Part shown: one piece after another, positions 27,018 through 44,237 of the stretch
Layout of the letters: each line of letters opens with the position of its first letter
Numbering within the stretch: position 1 is the first letter of the stretch
DNA from: a virus
Lineage: Duplodnaviria > Caudoviricetes
DNA length: 60,106 nucleotides
Virus record (IMG/VR): IMGVR_UViG_3300046170_000227
Location: 1 to 60,106 of that record
Direction: 5' to 3' (one strand)
Notes under the pieces: generated by a model
Seen by the model: only the letters and a program-made list of their open reading frames with translations
Told to the model about the DNA's origin: nothing
Database searches by the model: none
Program-made: the position numbers and the translations under genes

Positions 27018-28472
27018 ATGAATGAAAAGATAAATAAAATTCCGATTAATTATGAAGATTGGCTTGATCTTGGTCACGTGATAATACCCACTGATCAAAA
27101 AAAAGCTAGGGTCAGTTGGAAGAAAGATGATTTTAGTTTAACGAAAGAAGAATGGAAAAACAATTATTCAAAAGCACAAATAGCACTAAGATTAGATAGT
27201 CATATTGATTTAGATATAGACAATCCTGTAGTTAGAAGATTTATAACACACTATTTAAAAGACTGTGGAGCAATTTATGGAAGAAGAAATAACCCTAATA
27301 GTCACTATCTTTGGAAAGGGTCTTGTGAATTTATACAATACATATTACCAAAAAGTTTTGAAAAAAATTTTAAAAAGTTTCCACATGGTGCAACTCTTTG
27401 CGAATTAAGAAGTGGCAAAGAACGGTATACTATCGTTCCAGAATCTCCTTATGATGACAATGGTGAAACAGTTGAGTGGTCTAACTACAATGAGATACAC
27501 GAGTACATCGGTAACGTAGTTGTAGATGTTAGTAAGATTGCTTTGTCAACTGCTCTTACAATTATATATCCTTCTACAGGTTCTAGAGATATTTATTGTA
27601 CAGGCCATAGCTGGAATTTTAATTAAAAACACAGACTGGACAACAGAACAAATAGATAGCTTTGTTTACAACATTGCTATTGAAGCGAACGATACCTGAA
27701 CCCGAAGAACGTAAACAAAAAGGTACGACAGGAAAAAAGGGAGATAAGCTTTATGGTATTCCAAAATTAGCAGAAGTTTTAAATGTAGATAAAAAAGATG
27801 TTGCAAAATTATTTAGTTGGATTGGTGTTAAAAACAATAGTGAAGAAATACAAGAACACATAGGTGATATAGTTGAATACGGTAGCGATAGGTATTTTGT
27901 AAAAATTTATTTATTAGAAGACGGAAAGAAAATAGAAAAAGACATAACTGTGGAAGGTCCACATTTAATGAAAAAGAAAATTTTTTATGATGAAGTAATG
28001 AAACAAGCAGCGGTCTTTTTACCTTTTATGAAAGAACTTGATTTTGATAAAATGATGATGGCAAAATTTCAAGCCAGAACAAAATCACAAGATTATGATC
28101 CTGAGTCTAGCGAAGATGTAAGATTTATAGGATGGTTTGAATCTTTTATTGATAAGTACAAAGCTTATACAGATAAGAAAGAATTAGCAGATTTTAGTAT
28201 GCCTTATTTTAATATGAAAAATAATAGTTTAGGAATTTAATTTAAATAAATTTGATGAGTTTTTAGCTGAAAAAAGAGTAACTTTAGCAAGAGTAGATCT
28301 TGTTTTAAAATGCAAACGTATTTTAAGAGCTAAAAGATATAGAGGAAAATACAAAGAACAGTCTTGCCCTTCTTATAAAATAGATAACTATAATATAAAC
28401 AAGGATCATTTGATCATAGAAGGAGAAGCACAAGAAATAGAGGAAAGGGTAATAACTCATGAAACAACCTAA
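27018..28472 (+). CDS. Prim-Pol (AEP-type) primase (frameshifts ~27600, ~27690, ~28230)
   Basis: DLDID, SHYLW, ELR...YTIVPES motifs; fragments 27018 and 27662 plus a third frame to TAA 28472. Confidence 0.7.
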
Positions 28473-30040
28473 ATTTGTATCTGGTCCTCCAGGTACAGGA
28501 AAAACTCATTTATTTTTAATAGATAAATATAAAGAATTATTAAAAAACTATGAACCAGAAAAAATAATAATGTTATCGCACACAAATGTAGCTGCAGATG
28601 AATTAAAAGATGCTGTCTTAGATTTACCAGAAATGAAAGAAAGAGGTTTAAGAAAAAAATTTTTTAAATATAAAATATGCACGAATACATTCTTTTTGTA
28701 AAAGCAAGTTATTAAAAAAAGAATTAAGAACGTATGCAGATTACCTTAACTTGTGTACAGAAAATAGTGGTTTTAAAGCACAAAGAGTAACTCAATCAGA
28801 ATTTGATAATGACAAACATAAATTTTTTAAATTTCTTGGAGATGCTTTTGGACAAGGAAGAACAATCAAAGAGCATTGGAATTCTTTAAGAGAGACTAGC
28901 TCTAACTACTATCCTTATAATAACTTTAAAATGATTAGTGAAATGAAAGAAGTTTACGATAATTATAAAAAAGTTAATCAAGTATGCGATTATGATGACA
29001 TGATAAAAGATTTTATAGATCACGCAGTTACTCCAGACATAGATGTTTTAATAGTGGATGAGGCTCAAGATAGTAATATACCTCAGTTAAAAGCTTTAGA
29101 AAAAATGTCTACAAATGTAAAAGAATATTACATGGTAGGAGATGCGGATCAAACTATCTTTGAATTTGCTGGTGCTAATGCAGATTATTTTCATAAACTT
29201 TCTAAAGATGCAGAACAATTAAAACAAGGTTTAAGATGCGGAGAAACAATAAATACATTATGTAAAGAAATAATAAAACCTATATGGGACCATTATGGAT
29301 ATGAAAGAGTTTGGAAACCTGCAAAAAATATTATTGGAACACATTACTATTTACCAAGTCTTACCACAGACTGTTCGGCTATGGAAACTTTATTAGACAA
29401 AATAAAAAATACTAAAGAAACTTTTTTATTTACTTATAGAGGAACGCCTTCTGGAAAATGGGCAAGATCTTTTTTACACTATCACGGGATAGAGTTTTGT
29501 CATGTAGGTAGTGACCCTTATGTTTCTAAAAAAGAAATAAGATGTCATAAAACATGGCCAGAATTTGTAAAAGGAAAACAAATGCCTTTAAAACAGATAA
29601 AAGAATTTTGGAATTATATGGGTCAACAAGTTATTGTAAGAGGAAAAGGAGAAGCAACTTTTGAAGATTGGATAAACAAAGATTATTCTATCCAGGAGTT
29701 AATAGAAAAAAAATATTTACGTGCAGAAAGCCTTGATTTTACTGACTTTTATCACACAAGGATTAAATCAAAAACAAATGAAGAAAAAATTATGTACATA
29801 AATAATTTAATAAGAGATGGAGTGGACACAGAAGGAGAGGCAAGAGTTTATTATGGAAACATACATAAAGTAAAAGGACAGACTTACGATAATGTAATAG
29901 TCGATGAAACTTGTACTAGACGAGAAGACTATTTTACTCAACTGCGATTAAAATACGTAGCATACAGTAGAGGTAGGGTAGATTGTTGGACTGTAGCATC
30001 ACAAGATAGATACACATTAGGGAGAAAATATGACAGATAA
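28459..30040 (+). CDS. UvrD/Rep-like SF1 helicase (frameshift near 28680)
   Basis: GPPGTGKT, VDEAQD, GDADQTIF, HKVKG, YVAYSR. Confidence 0.85.
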
Positions 30041-30272: not shown

Positions 30273-32284
30273 GACACCAGAAGATTTAGATTTAGAACGG
30301 TATAGATACAGTTGCAGTTGACTTAGAAACTTACGACCCTAATTTAAAAACAAAAGGTTTAGGTGCTATAAGAGGAGATGGTTTTGTATGTGGAGTTGCA
30401 GTTGCAACAGGTAGAGACACTGTTTATTTTCCAATTAATCATTCAGATACAAATTTATCTTTAGATAAAAAAATTAAATTATGGGAAGCTTTAGATGAAA
30501 AATTATTTCAAAATGAAAAAATAACAAAAGTATTTCACAATGCAATGTACGATGTATGTTGGATTAGAGCTGTGACAGGTAAAAAAATGAAAGGTCGAAT
30601 TGTTGACACAATGATTGCAGGTTCTGTAATTGATGAAAATAGATTTAAATACTCATTAGATTCTTTATCTAAAGATTATAAAATTGGATCTAAGTATCAA
30701 TATGATTTACAACAGAAAACTTTAGAATGGTCTAAAGGAACAATTAAAGATCCGATGACTAATATGCATAAGTTACCTGCATCTATTGTAAAAGATTATG
30801 CCAAGCAAGACGTTGATTTAACTTTTAAGTTATGGAAAATGTTCAATGAAAAATTTGACGAAATATTATACACTAAATACAAAGAAGATAAAAATGGAAA
30901 AAGAATAAAAGATAAAAATGGAAAAGATATTATTATCGAAGAAAAAACAAGTAGAAATATTTTTGAATTAGAAACAAAATTATTTCCTTGTTTAGGTTGA
31001 CATGAAATTTAAAGGCGTTAAAATTGATGTCGAAAAAGCTAAAGCATTTGGTAAACGTTTAGAAAAAACTAAAAATAATATTATAAATTATATTGCTAGA
31101 AAAACTAACATTCGAGTAGAAATATGGGCAGCCTCTTCAATTAAAGCTTTATTAGATCACGAAAATATTGATGATTATACAAAAACACCTAAATCTGGAA
31201 TGCCACAGCTTCCTAAAAATTATCTATCTACCCATAAAAATAAATATTTAAGACTAATAGCTAAGGCTAGAGAATTAGATAAAGCTAAAAATACTTTCGT
31301 AGATGGTTTATTAGGTTTTGTTCACAACGGAAGAATACATGCAGATATAAATCAAATTAGAGGAGAGCATGGAGGAACGGTTACAGGTAGATTTTCTATG
31401 AGTAACCCTAACCTACAGCAAATTCCTTCTAAAGGTTATATAGGCAAAAAGATGAGAGAATTATTTATTCCTGAAACTGGAAGTGATTGGTATAGTTTTG
31501 ACTATAGTCAACAAGAACCACGTATTGTTGTCCACTATGCTATTAAATTAGGTATGGATGGAACAGATGATTTAAAAGAAGAGTTTGATAAAGAAGATGC
31601 TGATTTTCATCAGATTGTTGCAGACATGGCAAATATACCAAGAAAACAAGCTAAAACAATTAATCTTGGTTTGTTTTATGGTATGGGTAGAATAAAACTA
31701 CAAAAAGAATTAAACTTGGATTCAAAACAAGCTCAAACTTTATTTAATACTTATCATTCTAAAGTCCCTTTTGTAAAACAATTATCTAAAGATTTATCAG
31801 ATTTTGCAAGTGAAGAAGGATTGTTGTTTACGGTAGCAGATAGGTTCTGTCGATTTGATAAATGGGAAACTAGAGACAAAGAATGGAACCCTGAGACCAA
31901 TCGTTTTACTGAAGTAAAACTTCACGCCAAAAAAGAAGATGCCATTGATGCTTATAAATTAGAACAAATGGAAAAATACGATAAATATATAGATCCTACT
32001 TGTGAGCATTTTGAAAAACATTATACTAGAGCATTTACATACAAAGCATTAAATAGACTGATACAGGGATCAGCTGCAGATATGACAAAAAAGGCAATGG
32101 TCTTGTTATATGAAAAAGGTATAGTTCCTCACATACAGATACACGATGAGCTTTGTGTATCGATCAAGGATCAAGAAACACGGACCACGGTTCAAAAACA
32201 ATGGAGACAGCAATACCTTTAATGGTCAAGAACAAGGTAGACTATGAATCTGGACCAAACTGGGGTAATATAGATGAGGAATAA
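30265..32284 (+). CDS. polA: DNA polymerase family A with 3'-5' exonuclease (frameshifts ~30298, ~30993, ~32200)
   Basis: DLET, HNAMYD, TGRFS..NPNLQQIP, DYSQQEPR, KTINLGLFYGMG, IQGSAAD, QIHDEL. Confidence 0.92.
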
Positions 32285-36317: not shown

Positions 36318-36492
36318 GAAAGTATACATTTGTCCTACCTGTAAAGGTAATGGCTATGTAAAAGTCGCTTGCATTTATGAAAAAGAAGATATGGTTCATC
36401 AATGTTGGGACTGTGAGTCGCAAGGAGAACTTTACGATTATGGAGATGAAGACTTTTCAGATCTTGAAGGGGAAGGAATGTCAATACACTAA
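36295..36492 (+). CDS. DnaJ-type zinc-finger small protein
   Basis: CPTCKGNG and CWDCESQG. Confidence 0.6.
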   Translation: MASSKKVKKVYICPTCKGNGYVKVACIYEKEDMVHQCWDCESQGELYDYGDEDFSDLEGEGMSIH

Positions 36493-36932
36493 TGATACCT
36501 GATACTGACAAAGCGTATATTGCAGGACTGTTTGACGGAGAAGGGTCCATACATATAAGACGTGGCATTGAAAAGAAAAAGAAACACAAAGGCAAACCTG
36601 GATACAGACTATCTAATAGTCTGCGTCTAAGCATGGAGATCACTATGACTGACCGTAGTGTTCTCATGTGGGTGCATGAAGTATTAGGTGTTGGAACTCT
36701 AACACCTAAAAAGGTTAAGGGTAAACGTGTAGATGGTACACCTTATCTTAAACAATACAGATGGCGATGTACATTTAGAGATGCATACTATGTGTGTTGT
36801 TTGATATGGCCATTTGCACATACTAAACTACCTAAGATACAACAAGTCATAGAACATTACACACAACAAGCGTTAAAAGGTAATGTAATTTCTTTAGAAG
36901 AGTATAGGATGGTACAAAAAGATGTTAGATAA
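36492..36932 (+). CDS. Single-motif LAGLIDADG endonuclease-like protein
   Basis: AYIAGLFDGEGSI motif. Confidence 0.75.
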   Translation: MIPDTDKAYIAGLFDGEGSIHIRRGIEKKKKHKGKPGYRLSNSLRLSMEITMTDRSVLMWVHEVLGVGTLTPKKVKGKRVDGTPYLKQYRWRCTFRDAYYVCCLIWPFAHTKLPKIQQVIEHYTQQALKGNVISLEEYRMVQKDVR

Positions 36933-37183: not shown

Positions 37184-37934
37184 ATGAAGAAGAGTAATAA
37201 ATACAATTATTTAGAAGGAAAACAAATCACGGATCCTGATACAGGAAAACGTGTCTATGAGATAAGTTCTTATAGACTTCCGAGTCGTAACTACTATATT
37301 AGGGGCTACCAAAAATACAGAATTTTTAACCAAATGGAAGGCCAAAGTCGGTGAAGAACAAGCAGAGCGAATCAAGAATGTTTCTAGTGCACGGGGGACC
37401 AGTATGCATAAATTCCTCGAGTCATTTATCACAGATGTTGGTTACGATGATCTTACAGAACTCGGACAGGCGGCGTTGCCCATGGCCAAAAAAATTATGG
37501 AGATCGGTCTTGCGCCGGTGGAAGAGTATTATGGTTCCGAAGTTACGTTACACTATCCGGGCCTATACGCAGGCCAAACAGACCTTATCTGTAATCATAA
37601 TGGTATGGAAACTGTCGTTGACTTCAAGCAAGCTAACCGTCCGAAAAAGAAAGAATGGATCGAAGATTATTATTTGCAAATTGCAGCATACGCCATGGCA
37701 CACGACTATGTCTACGGCTCCCAAATTAAACAAGGAGTTATCATGGTATGCACGCCTGACCTATATTATCAAGAGTTCAAAGTAGAAGGACCTGAATTAA
37801 GGCGCTGGAAACATGCGTTTTTGAAGAGATTGGACATGTATCATGACCTAATGTTCGATGAGAAAGAAAAAACAACACCGATGAAAGAAGAAGATTTTAA
37901 TGAAAACAATCAACACAAATTTAAAAAATTATAA
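37184..37934 (+). CDS. PD-(D/E)XK exonuclease (frameshift near 37285)
   Basis: LPS-VTTIL, RGT.MH, YAGQTDL, VDFKQ, LQIAAY. Confidence 0.8.
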
Positions 37935-38574
37935 AACAGATATAGGTGTTTCTGAATTAGAAAAACAAATAGAAACATTAAAACAAAAAGCAGCTTTACC
38001 TTGTATTTATGCTTTTATAGATATTAAAAAAGAATTTGTTCCTAATGGAGTTCTTTACATTGGACAAAGTAAATCAGTCAAAAACAGAATTCTTAATTAT
38101 AAAGGTAAAAAATCTTCTGAGATTTTAAAAAAATTACAAAAAAGATTTAATCTTTGGGATAATTATTGGGGACAAGATTGGGGAGATGGTGAAATAATGG
38201 GCCCTAATCAAAAACAGGCAGCAGAAATAGATAACCTTCGTAAGTTTATAGAAGACCCAACAAGATGTCAGTTAATAATTAAAATAAGAAAAAAAGAAGA
38301 ATCAGAAGAAACACGTAAAAAATATGAGAAATTATATATAAATCGTTACTATCCTTTTTTAAATAAAATGCCATGGCATCCTTATAAAGCTACATCACGA
38401 AGATATTATATGAATCAAATGCATCCTGAAAAAAATCAAAGAAGTAAATTACCTGTTTATTGTTTACATACAGGAGACGTTTTTGAAGGACCTAGCGAAA
38501 TAGAAATAAGAAATTTAAATAAACAAAAGTATGATTCGAGAGTGAAAGGAATAAAAATAGATTTAAATGTTTAG
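37900..38574 (+). CDS. GIY-YIG nuclease-like protein
   Basis: CIY...LYIGQS....R..Y, then E..YI...P.LN. Confidence 0.65.
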   Translation: MKTINTNLKNYKTDIGVSELEKQIETLKQKAALPCIYAFIDIKKEFVPNGVLYIGQSKSVKNRILNYKGKKSSEILKKLQKRFNLWDNYWGQDWGDGEIMGPNQKQAAEIDNLRKFIEDPTRCQLIIKIRKKEESEETRKKYEKLYINRYYPFLNKMPWHPYKATSRRYYMNQMHPEKNQRSKLPVYCLHTGDVFEGPSEIEIRNLNKQKYDSRVKGIKIDLNV

Positions 38575-40536: not shown

Positions 40537-40914
40537 ATGGCGCCAGAGCGTAAATTATATCAAAAAGTTAAGAAACATTTTACCAATTTTTCCCTCATTA
40601 GACTTGAAAATAATAGCTTACACGGTACTCCCGATCTATTGGCTTATAATAATTCTGGCCACTTTTTCACTATCGAACTGAAAGTCACTTCGGGTAACCG
40701 ATTAAAGTTTTCACCACACCAAATAGCCTTTCATGTGAGGCATCCGAACAATACATTTATCATAGCAGAGGCCCTTGGTCCAAGGTCCGAGAAACTTATT
40801 TACATGTATCCTGGTTCAAGAATCTTGGAGCTTGAAGCCTGTGGCTTGAAGCTTGATCCTTTATGCTTGGGGCTTGAAGCTTGTGGCTTGTGGCTTAATA
40901 GACTTGGTGCTTGA
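40537..40914 (+). CDS. PD-(D/E)XK nuclease, Holliday junction resolvase/VRR-NUC-like
   Basis: E..LY, RLEN...GTPDL, IELK, SPHQIAFH. Confidence 0.7.
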   Translation: MAPERKLYQKVKKHFTNFSLIRLENNSLHGTPDLLAYNNSGHFFTIELKVTSGNRLKFSPHQIAFHVRHPNNTFIIAEALGPRSEKLIYMYPGSRILELEACGLKLDPLCLGLEACGLWLNRLGA

Positions 40915-40971
40915 AGCTTGCGGCTTGGAGCTTGATGCTTGTGGCTTGCTGCTTGGAGCTTGAGGCTTGTG
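40823..40971. repeat. GCTTGNN heptamer tandem array 1 (~21 units, 16 exact GCTTG)
   Basis: Read directly; 7-bp period with a single 2-bp phase slip at 40900. Confidence 0.9.
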
Positions 40972-41086
40972 GCCCGGACCAGGTGCACGCTGGGCTTCAG
41001 CCGTCGCTTTTCCATTGCTAATGACCTGATCCGATTTATCCCTTGGGATTCTGTAAAATTTTGGGTGTTTAAAAACAAATGTCATG

Positions 41087-41686
41087 TTAGTGTTTACCAT
41101 ATTCTATATTCTTAACAAGCGGGTCCCAGCAAGCTCGACAGCTGCCGCACTCATTGTTGTTGTCAGGGGCTGGACAGCTTCGACTCTTCGTCGAGACTGT
41201 TGACGTATTGGCCCAGCTCTTGACTGGTCCCTGGTCAATCATCGGTGATGAAAATCTTACAACTAAGTTTGCTGGCGCCATGTGCATATGGTCCTTGATC
41301 CACGCTTCACGCGTTGGCATCCAGTGACGCTTAGCTGGTGTGGCTCTACAGACTTCGAAAATTTTCATTAAGTGGGTGAAGTCCTGCACGTCGCCTGAAT
41401 CGTGCCATCTAAACACATCAGGCTTTTTGCTGTTGATCAGTGTTGCCATCGCTTCGACCCATTGCGGGTGATCAATTGCCTTCAGGCGCTTGTATTGCGC
41501 CGCTTGTACAACAGCGAAAACATAACAACCTTTCTCAGCGTAACAGCCTGAGCATACTGAGTTAGGTATTAATTTTAATTTGTTTCCAGTCTTGCATTCA
41601 GCAGCAGGAATTCCAATTGCCCAGCCGGGCATCTTCGACGGTTTACTTAGCCCTCCAACCAGGGCCCATGCTTCTTTAGTATTCAT
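41087..41686 (-). CDS. GP88-family Cys-rich phage protein
   Basis: SKPSKMP, C...VCSGCYA.KG, FRWHDSGD, CPA....CGSCRACWD. Confidence 0.7.
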   Translation of the reverse strand: MNTKEAWALVGGLSKPSKMPGWAIGIPAAECKTGNKLKLIPNSVCSGCYAEKGCYVFAVVQAAQYKRLKAIDHPQWVEAMATLINSKKPDVFRWHDSGDVQDFTHLMKIFEVCRATPAKRHWMPTREAWIKDHMHMAPANLVVRFSSPMIDQGPVKSWANTSTVSTKSRSCPAPDNNNECGSCRACWDPLVKNIEYGKH

Positions 41687-41713
41687 ATTCTTTTGTCCTT
41701 TCTTTTATAGGAT

Positions 41714-41742
41714 ACTATAACATTATAATTCTTACGTGTCAA
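41714..41742 (-). promoter_or_regulatory. Strong sigma70-type promoter for the GP88 gene
   Basis: Minus strand TTGACA-N17-TATAGT with TG extended -10. Confidence 0.75.
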
Positions 41743-41805
41743 GCTTGCGGCTTGTCGCTTGCAGCTTGAGGCTTGTTGCTTGTAGCTCGGTCCTTGGGCC
41801 TCGAG
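41743..41805. repeat. GCTTGNN heptamer array 2
   Basis: Exact GCTTG at 41743, 41750, 41757, 41764, 41771, 41778, then degenerate units. Confidence 0.85.
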
Positions 41806-41864
41806 CCAGCGCCAGTGGTGCAGCAGGATCTGTATACTTTCAGATCCTGCTCTATGGGCCTTAT

Positions 41865-42017
41865 TCATTTTAAATATCCAATCTCTTTCAGGTAGTCATA
41901 GGCATCATCCATCGTGGATCTAAAATGCTCAGTCCTGTATTCGGCTGGACAGTCTTCATCAGCCTGGCAGCACATAGCTGCCAGGTGAGCTGCAAGTATT
42001 TTTTCTTTTTCAGTCAT
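41865..42017 (-). CDS. Hypothetical protein (50 aa)
   Basis: Manually translated MTEKEKILAAHLAAMCCQADEDCPAEYRT...GYLK*; AGAAAGG RBS. Confidence 0.55.
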   Translation of the reverse strand: MTEKEKILAAHLAAMCCQADEDCPAEYRTEHFRSTMDDAYDYLKEIGYLK

Positions 42018-42144
42018 CCTTTCTGTCCTCCATGTATTTTCTTGATCTCTCCTGATCTTCCTTCACCATCCGGATGATCTCTTCCAGGGCGTTAGCTACT
42101 CTGTTCAGCTGCTCACCAGCTTCGTATATTTTTATTTTACTCAT
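42010..42144 (-). CDS. Hypothetical helical protein (44 aa)
   Basis: Manually translated MSKIKIYEAGEQLNRVANALEEIIRMVKED...; downstream of a promoter. Confidence 0.55.
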   Translation of the reverse strand: MSKIKIYEAGEQLNRVANALEEIIRMVKEDQERSRKYMEDRKDD

Positions 42145-42168
42145 ATGTATTTCTCACTTTCTATATTA

Positions 42169-42197
42169 ATCCTACATTATCCTTGAGCCATTGTCAA
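42169..42197 (-). promoter_or_regulatory. sigma70-type promoter
   Basis: Minus strand TTGACA-N17-TAGGAT. Confidence 0.65.
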
Positions 42198-42202
42198 GCG
42201 CT

Positions 42203-42223
42203 GCTTGCGGCTTGAGGCTTGGC
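42203..42223. repeat. GCTTGNN heptamer array 3
   Basis: GCTTG at 42203, 42210, 42217. Confidence 0.7.
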
Positions 42224-42252
42224 GCTCTCTGCTCTTCTTCTTTAGAATGATT

Positions 42253-42269
42253 TTTAGAATCATTCTAAA
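42253..42269. promoter_or_regulatory. ICE (Irr-box)-like palindrome 2
   Basis: TTTAGAA-TCA-TTCTAAA, with an extra TTTAGAAT half-site at 42241. Confidence 0.55.
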
Positions 42270-42294
42270 CTGGCAATTTACCCGTTGCGCCTCC

Positions 42295-42750
42295 TGATCA
42301 GGGAACTCGGCGCACCATGGTGTTACACACATTGCTACCTTGCGGATCATCGCTAACGTACAGGGAAATGCCAGAGGCAAGATGTGGACGCTGGTGTACA
42401 CTTACTGATACTATTATTAGCAGGACCCTGAGTTGAGGCCGGCGTGCTTTATTTTAACAGCCCGGGCAACAGGCCTAACAGGTTATCACCTGTCAGGGTC
42501 CAGCAAATAATGATCAGTCACTATGCTACGCGGGGTAGGTAGCGTTGCTTAATACCATGCAGGATCCTACGCGTGCCCCCGGGTTATAGTGTTATCTCCA
42601 CAGTCAATAATGACTGATCCCAGATCCAATTTACCAGTTCTAAAGCATAGCTGAACTTACTATCTATTGGATCAGGGATCAGTGCAGGGGAATTTTTAGG
42701 GTATCCCCTGCTCCTATTTTTTTATTTCACCTAAACAGAATAAAAAACAT
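42295..42750 (-). ncRNA. Candidate structured non-coding RNA: tandem array of long stem-loops
   Basis: Five to six consecutive inverted-repeat units, no convincing ORF, directly downstream of a minus-strand promoter. Confidence 0.6.
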
Positions 42751-42756
42751 AAATGC

Positions 42757-42795
42757 AATATAATCCTTGACTATCCTATTGTCAAGTAGTAAAAC
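42757..42795. promoter_or_regulatory. Divergent promoter pair built on the inverted repeat CTTGAC-TATCCTATT-GTCAAG
   Basis: -: TTGACA(42785)-N17-TATATT. +: TTGACT(42767)-N17-TAAAAC (weaker). Confidence 0.65.
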
Positions 42796-42801
42796 AATTA
42801 A

Positions 42802-43802
42802 ATGCAAAATAAAAATAATAACCAGAAAGGTACAATGACTAAAATAAGAATGAATACAGAGTTAAGAAACAAACTCTTTAATAAAATAAAAAATGTCTTT
42901 GAGAATGAGGACACTCAAGAACGAGAGGCATATCTTCAATCAAGAGAGTATGTTGATGAGCAATATACAACTGCACACAAACTTGCAAAAGAAGTTGTTG
43001 AGAGATCATATCCAACAGAAGATGTTGCAACATTAAGACACTTTAAAAATAAATATGGAAGTCCTTGTGATGTTGTTGCAAAAGATAAATGCTTTTACTT
43101 TGCACACAATGAGGGTGTTGATGATGAGGGCGAACCAAAAGAAACTAAATCACATTTTGATTTTGGTTTGTTTGGCAATACCAATGGTAGTGAGTACGAT
43201 CATACAGAGGGTAATCACTTTGCACTTGCTTATTATCGTGAGGATTTAAAAGCTATGGATTGCAACCCAGATATCTATGCACAACAAAAAGAAAACAAAG
43301 AGAATCCCACACAAAACAAAACATGTTGATGAGTGTTTAAAAGCACTTGGCAAAGTTGGTAATTATCATTCTTCAAATGATAATGTTGGTATGGCAAAAA
43401 CATTTGATGACCAATACTATCTTGATGTAATTGGAACATCTTATTGCAGATCACGTGCAATCGCATGTACTAAAGATGAGTACGAGCAATTTGAAACTTG
43501 GCGAATTGCAAAAGCTAATGTTGTATCTAAACACCAAACATGGATTGATACAATTCAAAAACAATGCGATCAGTTAAAGATTGGATTGAAAGCATACAGA
43601 TATCTTTCAGAGGGTATTGAACTTGCTACTGAACTTGGAATACAATTAGATGAGGCAGAGTTAATTAGAACTAACTCAACAGGGATTGACTATCTATAAT
43701 CCAAGCAACTTGGCTAGTATGATTAAAGGTATGAAGAATAAAAATCAATCAAGAGAGGCGAAGATATTGGCTAGAAAAAAATATGAAGAAAGTCTAAATT
43801 AA
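42802..43802 (+). CDS. Large early hypothetical protein (~320 aa; frameshifts ~43310, ~43685; likely start 42835)
   Basis: ORFs 42802 and 43277 join; AGAAAGG RBS before ATG 42835. Confidence 0.6.
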
Positions 43803-43805
43803 AGT

Positions 43806-43834
43806 TTGACAAGGGCTATCCTATAATATAGGAT
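43806..43834 (+). promoter_or_regulatory. sigma70-type promoter with TATCCTAT inverted repeat
   Basis: TTGACA-N17-TAGGAT; CTATCCTATA-A-TATAGGATAG inverted repeat. Confidence 0.7.
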
Positions 43835-44237
43835 AGTCCTATTAACTAGAAAGGTATAATATGACAAACAAAACATTTTACATAACTTATTGGGCTTCTC
43901 AAACATAAGAAGCACATTACAAGACAAGGAAAGCATGACGAGAAATCTCGTTATGGTACATCTAAACAAGGTGTTCCATATTATGTTTATTATGACTTAG
44001 ATAGTCATGGTTACAGAACTGCAACTACAACATGGAAAGTGAGGCACTAATGACAAGTTTTGAATTTTATTGTGTTGTTGGTTTCTTTGGTTTAATTATG
44101 GGATTGGTGGTAGTAGCATGATCTTAGGATTTATATTAATGTTTGGGATAGCAATGATACTTTGTGTTGGTTGTATTCTAGCAAATGGCACACAAGATTT
44201 TATGATGAACAAAATGAAAAAATAAGAAAGGATAACA

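Follow-up and report, generated by a model that had tools for sequence, protein, structure and literature searches.

The transfer RNA (tRNA) and stable-RNA cluster of phage T4 and the early RNase III sites of phage T7 are well-known phage small-RNA clusters and processing hairpins, and in human immunodeficiency virus 1 (HIV-1) the dimerization initiation site (DIS), which is part of the viral genome and serves packaging, is a hairpin whose tip carries a palindrome of 6 nucleotides (nt) that varies between lineages yet remains self-complementary. GOLLD, ROOL and OLE are described, in the excerpted text of Kretsch et al. (2025, PMC12286853), as large ornate RNAs that are homo-oligomeric. Here we describe an array of RNA modules in a 60,106-base virus record of IMG/VR (IMGVR_UViG_3300046170_000227; Caudoviricetes; estimated completeness 96%), the whole length of which is called the window below. 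The array lies on the minus strand, from a promoter starting at 42785 to at least 42280; a preliminary description made from the letters alone had placed it at 42295-42750, which is slightly too narrow. On comparison with its relatives it is a real and largely new modular noncoding RNA (ncRNA) locus. Our preferred reading, to which we would give a probability of roughly 55%, is that the array makes a trans-acting modular ncRNA, whole or processed, in which helices serve as sockets and copies are joined by symmetric loops. The earlier interpretation of the locus as a cassette of small RNAs is, taken as a whole, partly supported.

The match of positions 41000-44000 to Pelagibacter phage HTVC027P (MN698241; 82% identity across 64% of the length) identifies the carrier as an HTVC027P-like pelagiphage. 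The array occupies a 690-nt divergent intergenic gap between the ATG of a minus-strand operon at 42144 and the ATG of a plus-strand gene at 42835, in a region situated between the small and large terminase genes, and the homologous stretch of HTVC027P carries no annotation. The site is noncoding, as all six reading frames are closed with 7-13 stops each, and the lengths of the module interiors show no multiple-of-three pattern. Along the minus strand, module A (42614-42682) has a variable interior on a basal helix, CUGAUCCCUGAUCC/GGAUCUGGGAUCAG (42614-42630/42666-42682, 16 of 17 base pairs (bp)), whose single U·U mismatch is conserved and has a CUG/CUG context. Module B (42512-42619) is a framework of about 110-125 nt with a helix P1 (arms GAUCAGUCA... 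and ...UGACUGAUC; 42512-42520/42611-42619, 9 bp), a competing hairpin on the 5' side (CAGUCA-UUAU-UGACUG), an inner helix that covaries strongly and a distal domain that is variable. Module C (42413-42511) has an interior with a three-way junction on a basal helix, AUUAUUUGCUGGACC/GGUCCUGCUAAUAAU (42413-42431/42493-42511, 17 of 19 bp), whose two mismatches are conserved and read U·U on the minus strand. The last module, F1 (42280-42399), is the Flavobacterium-1 RNA of Rfam (RF02976). Modules abut without spacers, and the word GAUCAG (42619-42614) belongs both to the 3' arm of A and to the 5' arm of B. Of the six helices that the preliminary description had claimed, five are present in the sequence: those of A, B and C just given, that of an optional 5' hairpin (GCAGGGGA...UCCCCUGC, 42684-42711; arms 42684-42691/42704-42711), and 42718-42726/42739-42747, which exists but consists of A/T runs of low complexity. 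The outermost one, 42297-42301/42405-42409, is complementary in the window but clashes with the Rfam fold of 42280-42399, and it is not kept in relatives, where AUCAG stays upstream when the loop changes to UGGCCA and many copies have no AUCAG. The TGAT(C) words reported at 42295, 42406, 42511 and 42615 are all there, the first being the tip of an F1 hairpin and no unit junction, and the GCAA tetraloop and the competing CAGTCA/TGACTG hairpin were found as described.

Relatives of the protein encoded by the divergent neighbor gene were found on 517 viral contigs; the best 80 were examined, and 72 of them were unique with at least 900 nt upstream. At least one module is present in 71 of these 72 loci and the order is always A-B-C-F1, in the combinations AB (21 loci), ABCF (20), ABC (5), ABF (5), others (20) and none (1). 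Modules A and B occur in 61 and 62 of the 72 relatives and module C, by a strict motif, in 33; the stems are conserved in about 70 related contigs, and IMG/VR has at least 119 stretches with an 18-mer of module B. Rfam scans of the window and of 20 related loci gave no match for any module other than F1, and ARAGORN found no tRNA in the window or in 60 related loci. The stem of module C has a variant, UUUGUUGG/CCUACUAAU, in which both U·U mismatches are retained and a C-G pair is replaced by U-A. In the alignment of module B (A2, 77 unique copies), 45 of the about 108 positions of the window copy are invariant, the inner helix takes all four Watson-Crick pairs at columns 42-114 (CG 43, AU 19, GC 7, UA 7), and the distal helix has the forms GUUGAC/GUCAAC, GUUACC/GGUAAC and GCCAAC/GUUGGC. 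Helix P1 of module B holds an invariant U·G pair and an alternation of A-U and G·U (59/17), at a position that may be the loop of the competing hairpin. A check of the distal domain of B for a pseudoknot found that helix b/b' covaries; helix a/a' scored 5.00 in family 0 against a permuted-partner maximum of 5.11 and is a candidate only. Four relatives (L150, L157, L165 and L180) have, on the sense strand, extra conserved hairpin types ahead of module A, for example GUAGGAUCA...UGAUCC, and in these the array comes after two small open reading frames (ORFs) on the same strand.

Within the conserved stems the interiors are exchanged. There are 75 unique interiors in A, 65 in B and 49 in C (189 in total), which fall into 87 similarity families, 63 of them singletons, and the picture of conserved closing stems around variable, internally paired interiors, already drawn in the preliminary description, is also seen in the comparison with HTVC027P, where helices are kept and interiors changed. 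Eight interior families are shared between A and C stems without any change of orientation, and no inverted match of at least 25 nt was found among the interiors. The family of the window's own C interior has 14 unique members, two of them on A stems, and its P1 and P2 helices covary; since stems within families change by compensation, the interiors are structured domains themselves. A single-stranded loop, UAAACAAUU, recurs among them. In the closest relative examined (L115, neighbor protein 96% identical), the promoter, module B (4 differences) and the downstream part match the window, the 5' hairpin and the A interior differ, and one A-type hairpin replaces C and F1; the breakpoints are located at the junction words CUGAUCA/GAUCAG. 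Each module consists of a near-invariant basal helix and a distal domain that differs between related phages, and the invariant junction words CUGAUC, GAUCAG and UGAUCA would permit recombinational exchange of distal domains or of whole modules. Such turnover may point to conflict with factors of the host or of rivals. Alternatively, the array could be a collection of selfish or neutral hairpin cassettes, resembling miniature inverted-repeat transposable elements (MITEs) or recombination debris, that gather at an intergenic site which tolerates them and are of no use to the phage; the terminal inverted repeats that flank variable cores, and the gain, loss and swapping seen between near-identical genomes, would agree with this. 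We find it very improbable, as each genome has a single locus, the stem motifs are found nowhere else in the 60-kb window, the order and orientation are fixed, nearly all relatives carry the array, and its structure is conserved by compensatory change.

The loops of the array suggest with what the RNA may interact. In the window, the tip of the 3' hairpin of F1 is a self-complementary decamer, CCUGAUCAGG (42293-42302), a candidate symmetric kissing-loop or dimer contact. The tip is self-complementary in 89 of 89 unique copies, as UGAUCA (42), GUGCAC (28), GUCGAC (13) or UGGCCA (6), and its central dinucleotide covaries, with AU (42) and GC (6) in one register and GC (28) and CG (13) in the other. 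A second, upstream copy of the tip word was found in 2 of 41 loci for GUGCAC, in 0 of 16 for GUCGAC and in 0 of 7 for UGGCCA. As adjacent bases are unable to pair within one hairpin and a second copy of these three words is almost never nearby, the natural partner would be the same loop on another molecule. Module B behaves in the same manner: at one offset a perfect palindrome of at least 6 nt is found in 41 of 64 unique copies (mononucleotide shuffles: mean 10.3, maximum 19) and one of at least 8 nt in 25 of 64 (mean 2.6, maximum 7). The palindromes are of 13 distinct kinds, such as GGGAUCCC, GGAGCUCC, GGGUACCC and GACUAGUC, and the window has the self-complementary octamer AGGAUCCU in the distal domain (42561-42568), a candidate symmetric RNA-RNA contact. 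Palindromes of at least 8 nt are also enriched in the interiors of A (26 of 75, shuffle maximum 23) and C (29 of 49, shuffle maximum 17), the latter not significantly when one C interior per family is taken (8 of 18, shuffle maximum 9), and the predicted folds show a modest enrichment of palindromic tetraloops (13 of 76; shuffles about 4 of 74). The same argument from palindrome covariation has been made for loop L9.3 of OLE and loop L21a of GOLLD, for which cryo-electron microscopy confirmed symmetric kissing loops (excerpted text of PMC12286853). By this analogy we read the palindromic loops as sites of homomeric RNA-to-RNA pairing, from which we infer multimerization: in B, in F1 and in many interiors of A and C, a self-complementary loop would pair with its counterpart on a second RNA molecule, and the RNA would work in trans during infection as a dimer or higher multimer.

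The only module that belongs to a catalogued family is F1, contrary to the earlier statement that no described family could be recognized in the array. It matches the covariance model of RF02976 with 104.3 bits (cut-off 58.9, E 2e-19) over positions 1-121 of 121, on the minus strand only, and is present in 10 of 20 related loci scanned with Rfam, in all ten on the array strand. The stems of RF02976, those of its three-way junction and of its 3' hairpin, are kept by compensatory change: in the alignment of F1 (A3, 89 unique copies) the closing stem varies together with its partner strand, and the tetraloop hairpin alternates between GAUGAUCC-GCAA-GGUAGC, GAUGAUGG-GCAA-CCUAGC and GACCUG-CAAG-GGUAGG. 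Flavobacterium-1 was reportedly described as a candidate small RNA by Weinberg et al. in 2017. The motif has no mention in the main text of that paper (PMC5737381), and a literature search on "Flavobacterium-1" gave one unrelated paper. A 17-mer of the F1 core was found in 110 IMG/VR stretches, and HTVC027P is the sole named phage that has it. Two of the 110 (L022 and L080), in which the 17-mer lies inside a repeat with a period of 66 nt that at first resembled clustered regularly interspaced short palindromic repeats (CRISPR), were dismissed as chance matches. The loci collected by the 17-mer and those anchored on the neighbor gene overlap, and were de-duplicated by sequence only. When a 23-base pattern of the F1 core was run against one genome per species (185,579 species), only two records matched, with a strictness that may miss diverged bacterial copies: a 6.5-kb scaffold labelled "Flavobacterium sp. 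SCGC" and a 2.4-kb contig of a Nitrosopumilus metagenome-assembled genome. Both of these cellular-labelled records encode HTVC027P-like phage proteins. The occurrence in Flavobacterium that the name implies was not found in these searches, as the cultured carrier is a Pelagibacter phage and the sole "Flavobacterium sp." record is phage-like. Since both cellular-labelled records encode proteins of the same phage, our data suggest that Flavobacterium-1 is a marine-phage RNA that was named after a phage fragment in a single-cell assembly. In other uncultured marine phages, which have no A, B or C motifs (among L003-L112, for example L004, L024, L034 and L050), F1 has a second form whose tip is GUGCAC or GUCGAC. 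This form directly follows an ORF that ends in ...GSGNFYGCICK, stops just short of the following ATG and often has other closed multi-hairpin modules ahead of it; in L034 the gene shortly downstream is that of the large terminase.

The minus strand, which was favored in the preliminary description, is the better-supported RNA strand by the Rfam match, the folding of the interiors and the matches at related loci. Taken alone, the interiors are more often more stable on the minus strand than on the plus strand (A 55 vs 19, p 8e-6; C 39 vs 10, p 7.5e-7), also with one sequence per family (A 40 vs 16, C 17 vs 1), and the bias exceeds that of shuffled sequences (p 0.017 for A and 0.004 for C). The fixed orientation of the cassettes and the compensatory change in hypervariable segments are hard to explain as features of double-stranded DNA.

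Several observations count against the preferred reading. The folding of 42270-42750 beats shuffles on both strands, with -162 kcal/mol against -138 on the minus strand (z -3.95, 0 of 100 shuffles as good) and -165.2 kcal/mol on the plus strand (z -4.84), thus slightly more on the plus strand. About half of the strand bias of the interiors is due to base composition, and module B has no significant bias (35 vs 28, p 0.38). The basal helices barely vary and their covariation is thin, P1 of module B having one compensatory and one G·U change. This helix also competes with the base of A for the shared GAUCAG and is missing from the full-length minimum-energy fold, where A and the small CAGUCA/UGACUG hairpin form instead. 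Sequences of the relatives are related, so the counts do not represent independent events, and the palindrome counts were compared with mononucleotide shuffles, in which hairpin propensity is not preserved. By a strict regular expression, only 19 of 71 loci have the full promoter in the 260 nt that precede the first module, the 5' hairpin with its T run resembles an intrinsic terminator on the plus strand, and the RNA-library sequences described below are contigs that have neither strand nor ends, which makes them evidence of presence and not proof of transcription. Finally, the array is the part of the genome that is densest in GATC (8 in 491 nt; mean 3.66 per kb), and a GATC cluster together with spacer-less palindromes would also suit a DNA-level site. 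Such a site could be a replication origin, a packaging (pac) site or a group of sites for dimeric DNA-binding proteins; the pac of phage P1 has repeated TGATCA/G hexamers. The location between the small and large terminase genes, the enrichment of spacer-less palindromes and the equally good folding of both strands agree with this explanation. It nevertheless seems decidedly improbable to us, since the hypervariable interiors still keep compensatory pairing, the folding of the interiors favors one strand and G·U pairs are commoner on one of the two, interiors hold one orientation when moved between stems, and F1 occurs between ORFs in unrelated genome contexts as well. A protein site would be expected to keep one sequence, compared to the 13 palindromes found here at one position, and the scan of 72 ORFs revealed no DNA methyltransferase.

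According to the reading that we prefer, host RNA polymerase would make a structured minus-strand RNA of about 450-500 nt, or separated modules, from a sigma-70-type promoter, TTGACA-N17-TATATT (42757-42785, minus strand, 11 of 12 matches), which points into the array. We infer all three steps of this reading: that the array is transcribed from here, that RNA copies associate and that they work in trans. The promoter had been noticed in the preliminary description, and it recurs in relatives: it is identical in HTVC027P and in L115, and TTGACAAT (at most 1 mismatch) lies within 120 nt of the neighbor gene in 54 of 72 unique relatives. Its -35 box is half of a TTGAC-N9-GTCAA palindrome that is common to the divergent plus-strand gene. 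The absence of a phage RNA polymerase among the 72 ORFs scanned fits the use of a host-type promoter. Part of the stretch occurs in 18 rows of public runs, 10 of them recorded as RNA, and four marine RNA-library runs from four studies were examined. Contigs of RNA libraries equal module C with 0 differences (X1 record 3, 42416-42525; X14 record 12, 42413-42524), one contig (X8 record 26, 42332-42535) bridges F1, C and B, and there are joints that swap interiors (in X6 from 42427 to 42497 with 27 other letters), the sides of which are shorter than 30 nt and may derive from relatives.

If one precursor is made, it could be cut at the closing stems of about 17-22 bp by host RNase III or by a phage protein into separate antisense, guide or decoy RNAs of 60-120 nt, which is close to what the preliminary description had proposed. 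We regard this as possible though doubtful, and it is compatible with multimers. The closing stems are long, near-perfect duplexes with fixed mismatches and of compatible lengths, their sequence is retained while the interiors change, and the modules abut without spacers; RNase III sites with internal loops in the early RNA of phage T7 are an established precedent. When the array was searched against the window for antisense targets, no significant match was obtained (best 17 nt, 94% identity, E 0.36), and the interiors are mostly paired structured domains and not open seeds. The suggestion that CUGA words act as C/D boxes found no support in the comparison with Rfam, where the best C/D match was SNORD75 with 13.6 bits (cut-off 50), outside the array, and neither a Nop-like nor a fibrillarin partner was found among the 72 ORFs scanned.

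The position of the array upstream of a minus-strand operon (42144 to 41087 and beyond) brings up a cis-acting leader, or hairpins that stabilize or insulate the operon. There is no clear terminator between F1 and the downstream genes, in some relatives the array comes after small ORFs on the same strand, and other phages have F1 just after a stop codon and just before an ATG. Furthermore, gp33 and gp34 of HTVC027P, just downstream of the array, form a separate expression cluster that peaks 6-9 h after infection and is early-to-middle in timing, as given in the excerpted text on the HTVC027P transcriptome (PMC12753301), in which intergenic or noncoding RNA is not mentioned; in the excerpts of the paper on HTVC023P-type genomes, noncoding RNA is not mentioned either. 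We consider a role in cis unlikely, as a second promoter lies between the array and the downstream genes, hypervariable interiors and changing numbers of modules are hard to reconcile with a regulatory leader, and self-complementary loops point to contacts in trans. This second promoter, TTGACA-N17-TAGGAT after three GCTTGNN units (42169-42226, minus strand), is predicted to serve ORFs 42144-42010 and 42017-41865 and the GP88-family gene 41686-41087, and GCTTGACA, which belongs to it, recurs downstream of the array in most relatives. Between it and F1 there is an A/U-rich hairpin, AGAAUGAUU...AAUCAUUCU (42244-42266, minus strand), which has no U tract and is kept in L115 and absent from HTVC027P. 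At the other end of the array, the predicted 5' end of the RNA (42718-42750, minus strand) comprises the low-complexity A/U-only helix and a mini-ORF (42750-42727), and it is identical in HTVC027P and thus offers no covariation. The mini-ORF has 7 codons (ATG TTT TTT ATT CTG TTT AGG TGA) and is the same in HTVC027P. The optional 5' hairpin is present in about 10 of 112 oriented loci, and an unrelated hairpin substitutes for it in L115.

Among the proteins of the window are an SU10-type portal and adaptor, a family-A DNA polymerase, helicases, GroES and terminase; RNA polymerase, methyltransferase, reverse transcriptase, integrase, cas families and transposase were all looked for and not found among the 72 ORFs scanned. 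The proteins next to the array matched a terminase small subunit, GP88 (PF17338) and, weakly, an Hjc-like protein in searches of Pfam, PHROGs, PADLOC and NCBIfam, as well as the "KRQAASG repeat spurious translation" entry of NCBIfam, and an Atlas search of these proteins yielded no lead. An AlphaFold2 model of the divergent neighbor in its 324-residue form (31 sequences) had a mean predicted local distance difference test (pLDDT) score of only 56.4. In the window, the gene for this protein (42835-43699) is broken into ORFs of 164 and 140 residues by a frameshift in an A-rich run near 43300, it is a single ORF of 319-324 residues in 35 of 47 parsed relatives, and contigs of RNA libraries carry a variant with a 1-base deletion at 43305; the frameshift is either an assembly error or a real polymorphism. 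Tandem repeats of the 7-nt unit GCTTGNN are found at 40823-40974 (about 20 units), 41743-41794 (about 7) and 42203-42226 (3), and each of the two small blocks immediately precedes, in the minus sense, a TTGACA promoter (41742 and 42197). ORF 41683-41868 crosses a GCTTGNN block and matches NCBIfam NF041631 with 21.6 bits, under the cut-off of 30; owing to this match to a spurious-translation family and to the block, it and ORF 40861-41100 are probably not genes. In the stretches 28459-30037, 30545-32219, 36492-36929 and 37900-38574, a UvrD-like helicase and the family-A DNA polymerase are each divided over two ORFs, and a LAGLIDADG ORF and a weak GIY-YIG-like ORF near these split replication genes suggest mobile endonuclease activity in the replication module. 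In HTVC027P, gp30 (L001 2107-2283), which is on the same strand near the array, is an ArfA ribosome-rescue factor domain protein according to the excerpted text of PMC12753301.

The locus is nearly universal in the group examined (71 of 72 contigs) and contains an orphan Rfam family. It unites two unusual traits, helices that act as sockets for fast-changing domains and loops that covary to stay self-complementary. A more specific and rather unlikely form of our reading is that the array RNA is a self-assembling display scaffold: several symmetric kissing loops per molecule, in B, F1 and many interiors of A and C, would join copies to dimers, chains or a closed RNA-only assembly similar to GOLLD and ROOL, and the stems would present rapidly exchanged domains that bind or sequester factors of the host or of rival phages. 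If this were true, the array would be the site of an arms race at the RNA level in a virus group that is among the ocean's most abundant, and the orphan Flavobacterium-1 family would obtain its first mechanism. SAR11 bacteria are the most abundant bacteria in the sea. Pelagiphages of the HTVC023P type infect SAR11 and are among the most widespread pelagiphages, as stated in the excerpted text of PMC9599517. Most of what their genomes encode lacks annotation. With the cultured pair of HTVC027P and HTCC1062 and a published RNA-seq time course of infection (PMC12753301), expression, processing and dimerization of the array RNA are directly testable.

Modules A, B and C, the layout of sockets and cassettes, the phage origin of F1 and the covariation of its palindrome are undescribed in the literature examined, F1 alone being catalogued, and even the full-length member of RF02976 at 42280-42399 is only one of the four or five modules of the array. 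Like CRISPR arrays, integron attC sites and MITEs, the array has conserved repeats around variable segments and a turnover of cassettes. It differs from them in that its repeats form the two opposed arms of the same hairpin, unit follows unit without a gap and a genome has a single copy at one site, and neither direct repeats with spacers nor, among the 72 ORFs scanned, cas families were found. With the clusters of T4 and T7 the array shares structured RNAs in a row behind one promoter and mismatched long stems at the unit boundaries, whereas it has no tRNAs and its interiors are hypervariable. The tip of F1, in its GUGCAC form, has a palindrome similar to that of the HIV-1 DIS, although the array would be a small RNA of a DNA phage and the analogy is one of mechanism only. 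The Rfam models of GOLLD, ROOL and OLE have no match in the window or in 20 related loci, and compared to these RNAs the array RNA is smaller, is not located beside tRNAs and has exchangeable interiors, and its multimers are proposed from sequence. Still, GOLLD and ROOL are, as far as the excerpted text goes, phage-borne and multi-domain like the array, and the same text reports that the palindromes of the kissing loops in OLE L9.3 and GOLLD L21a covary (GGCC/GAUC/AGCU and GC/CG), which is the same signature that is seen in F1 and in module B.

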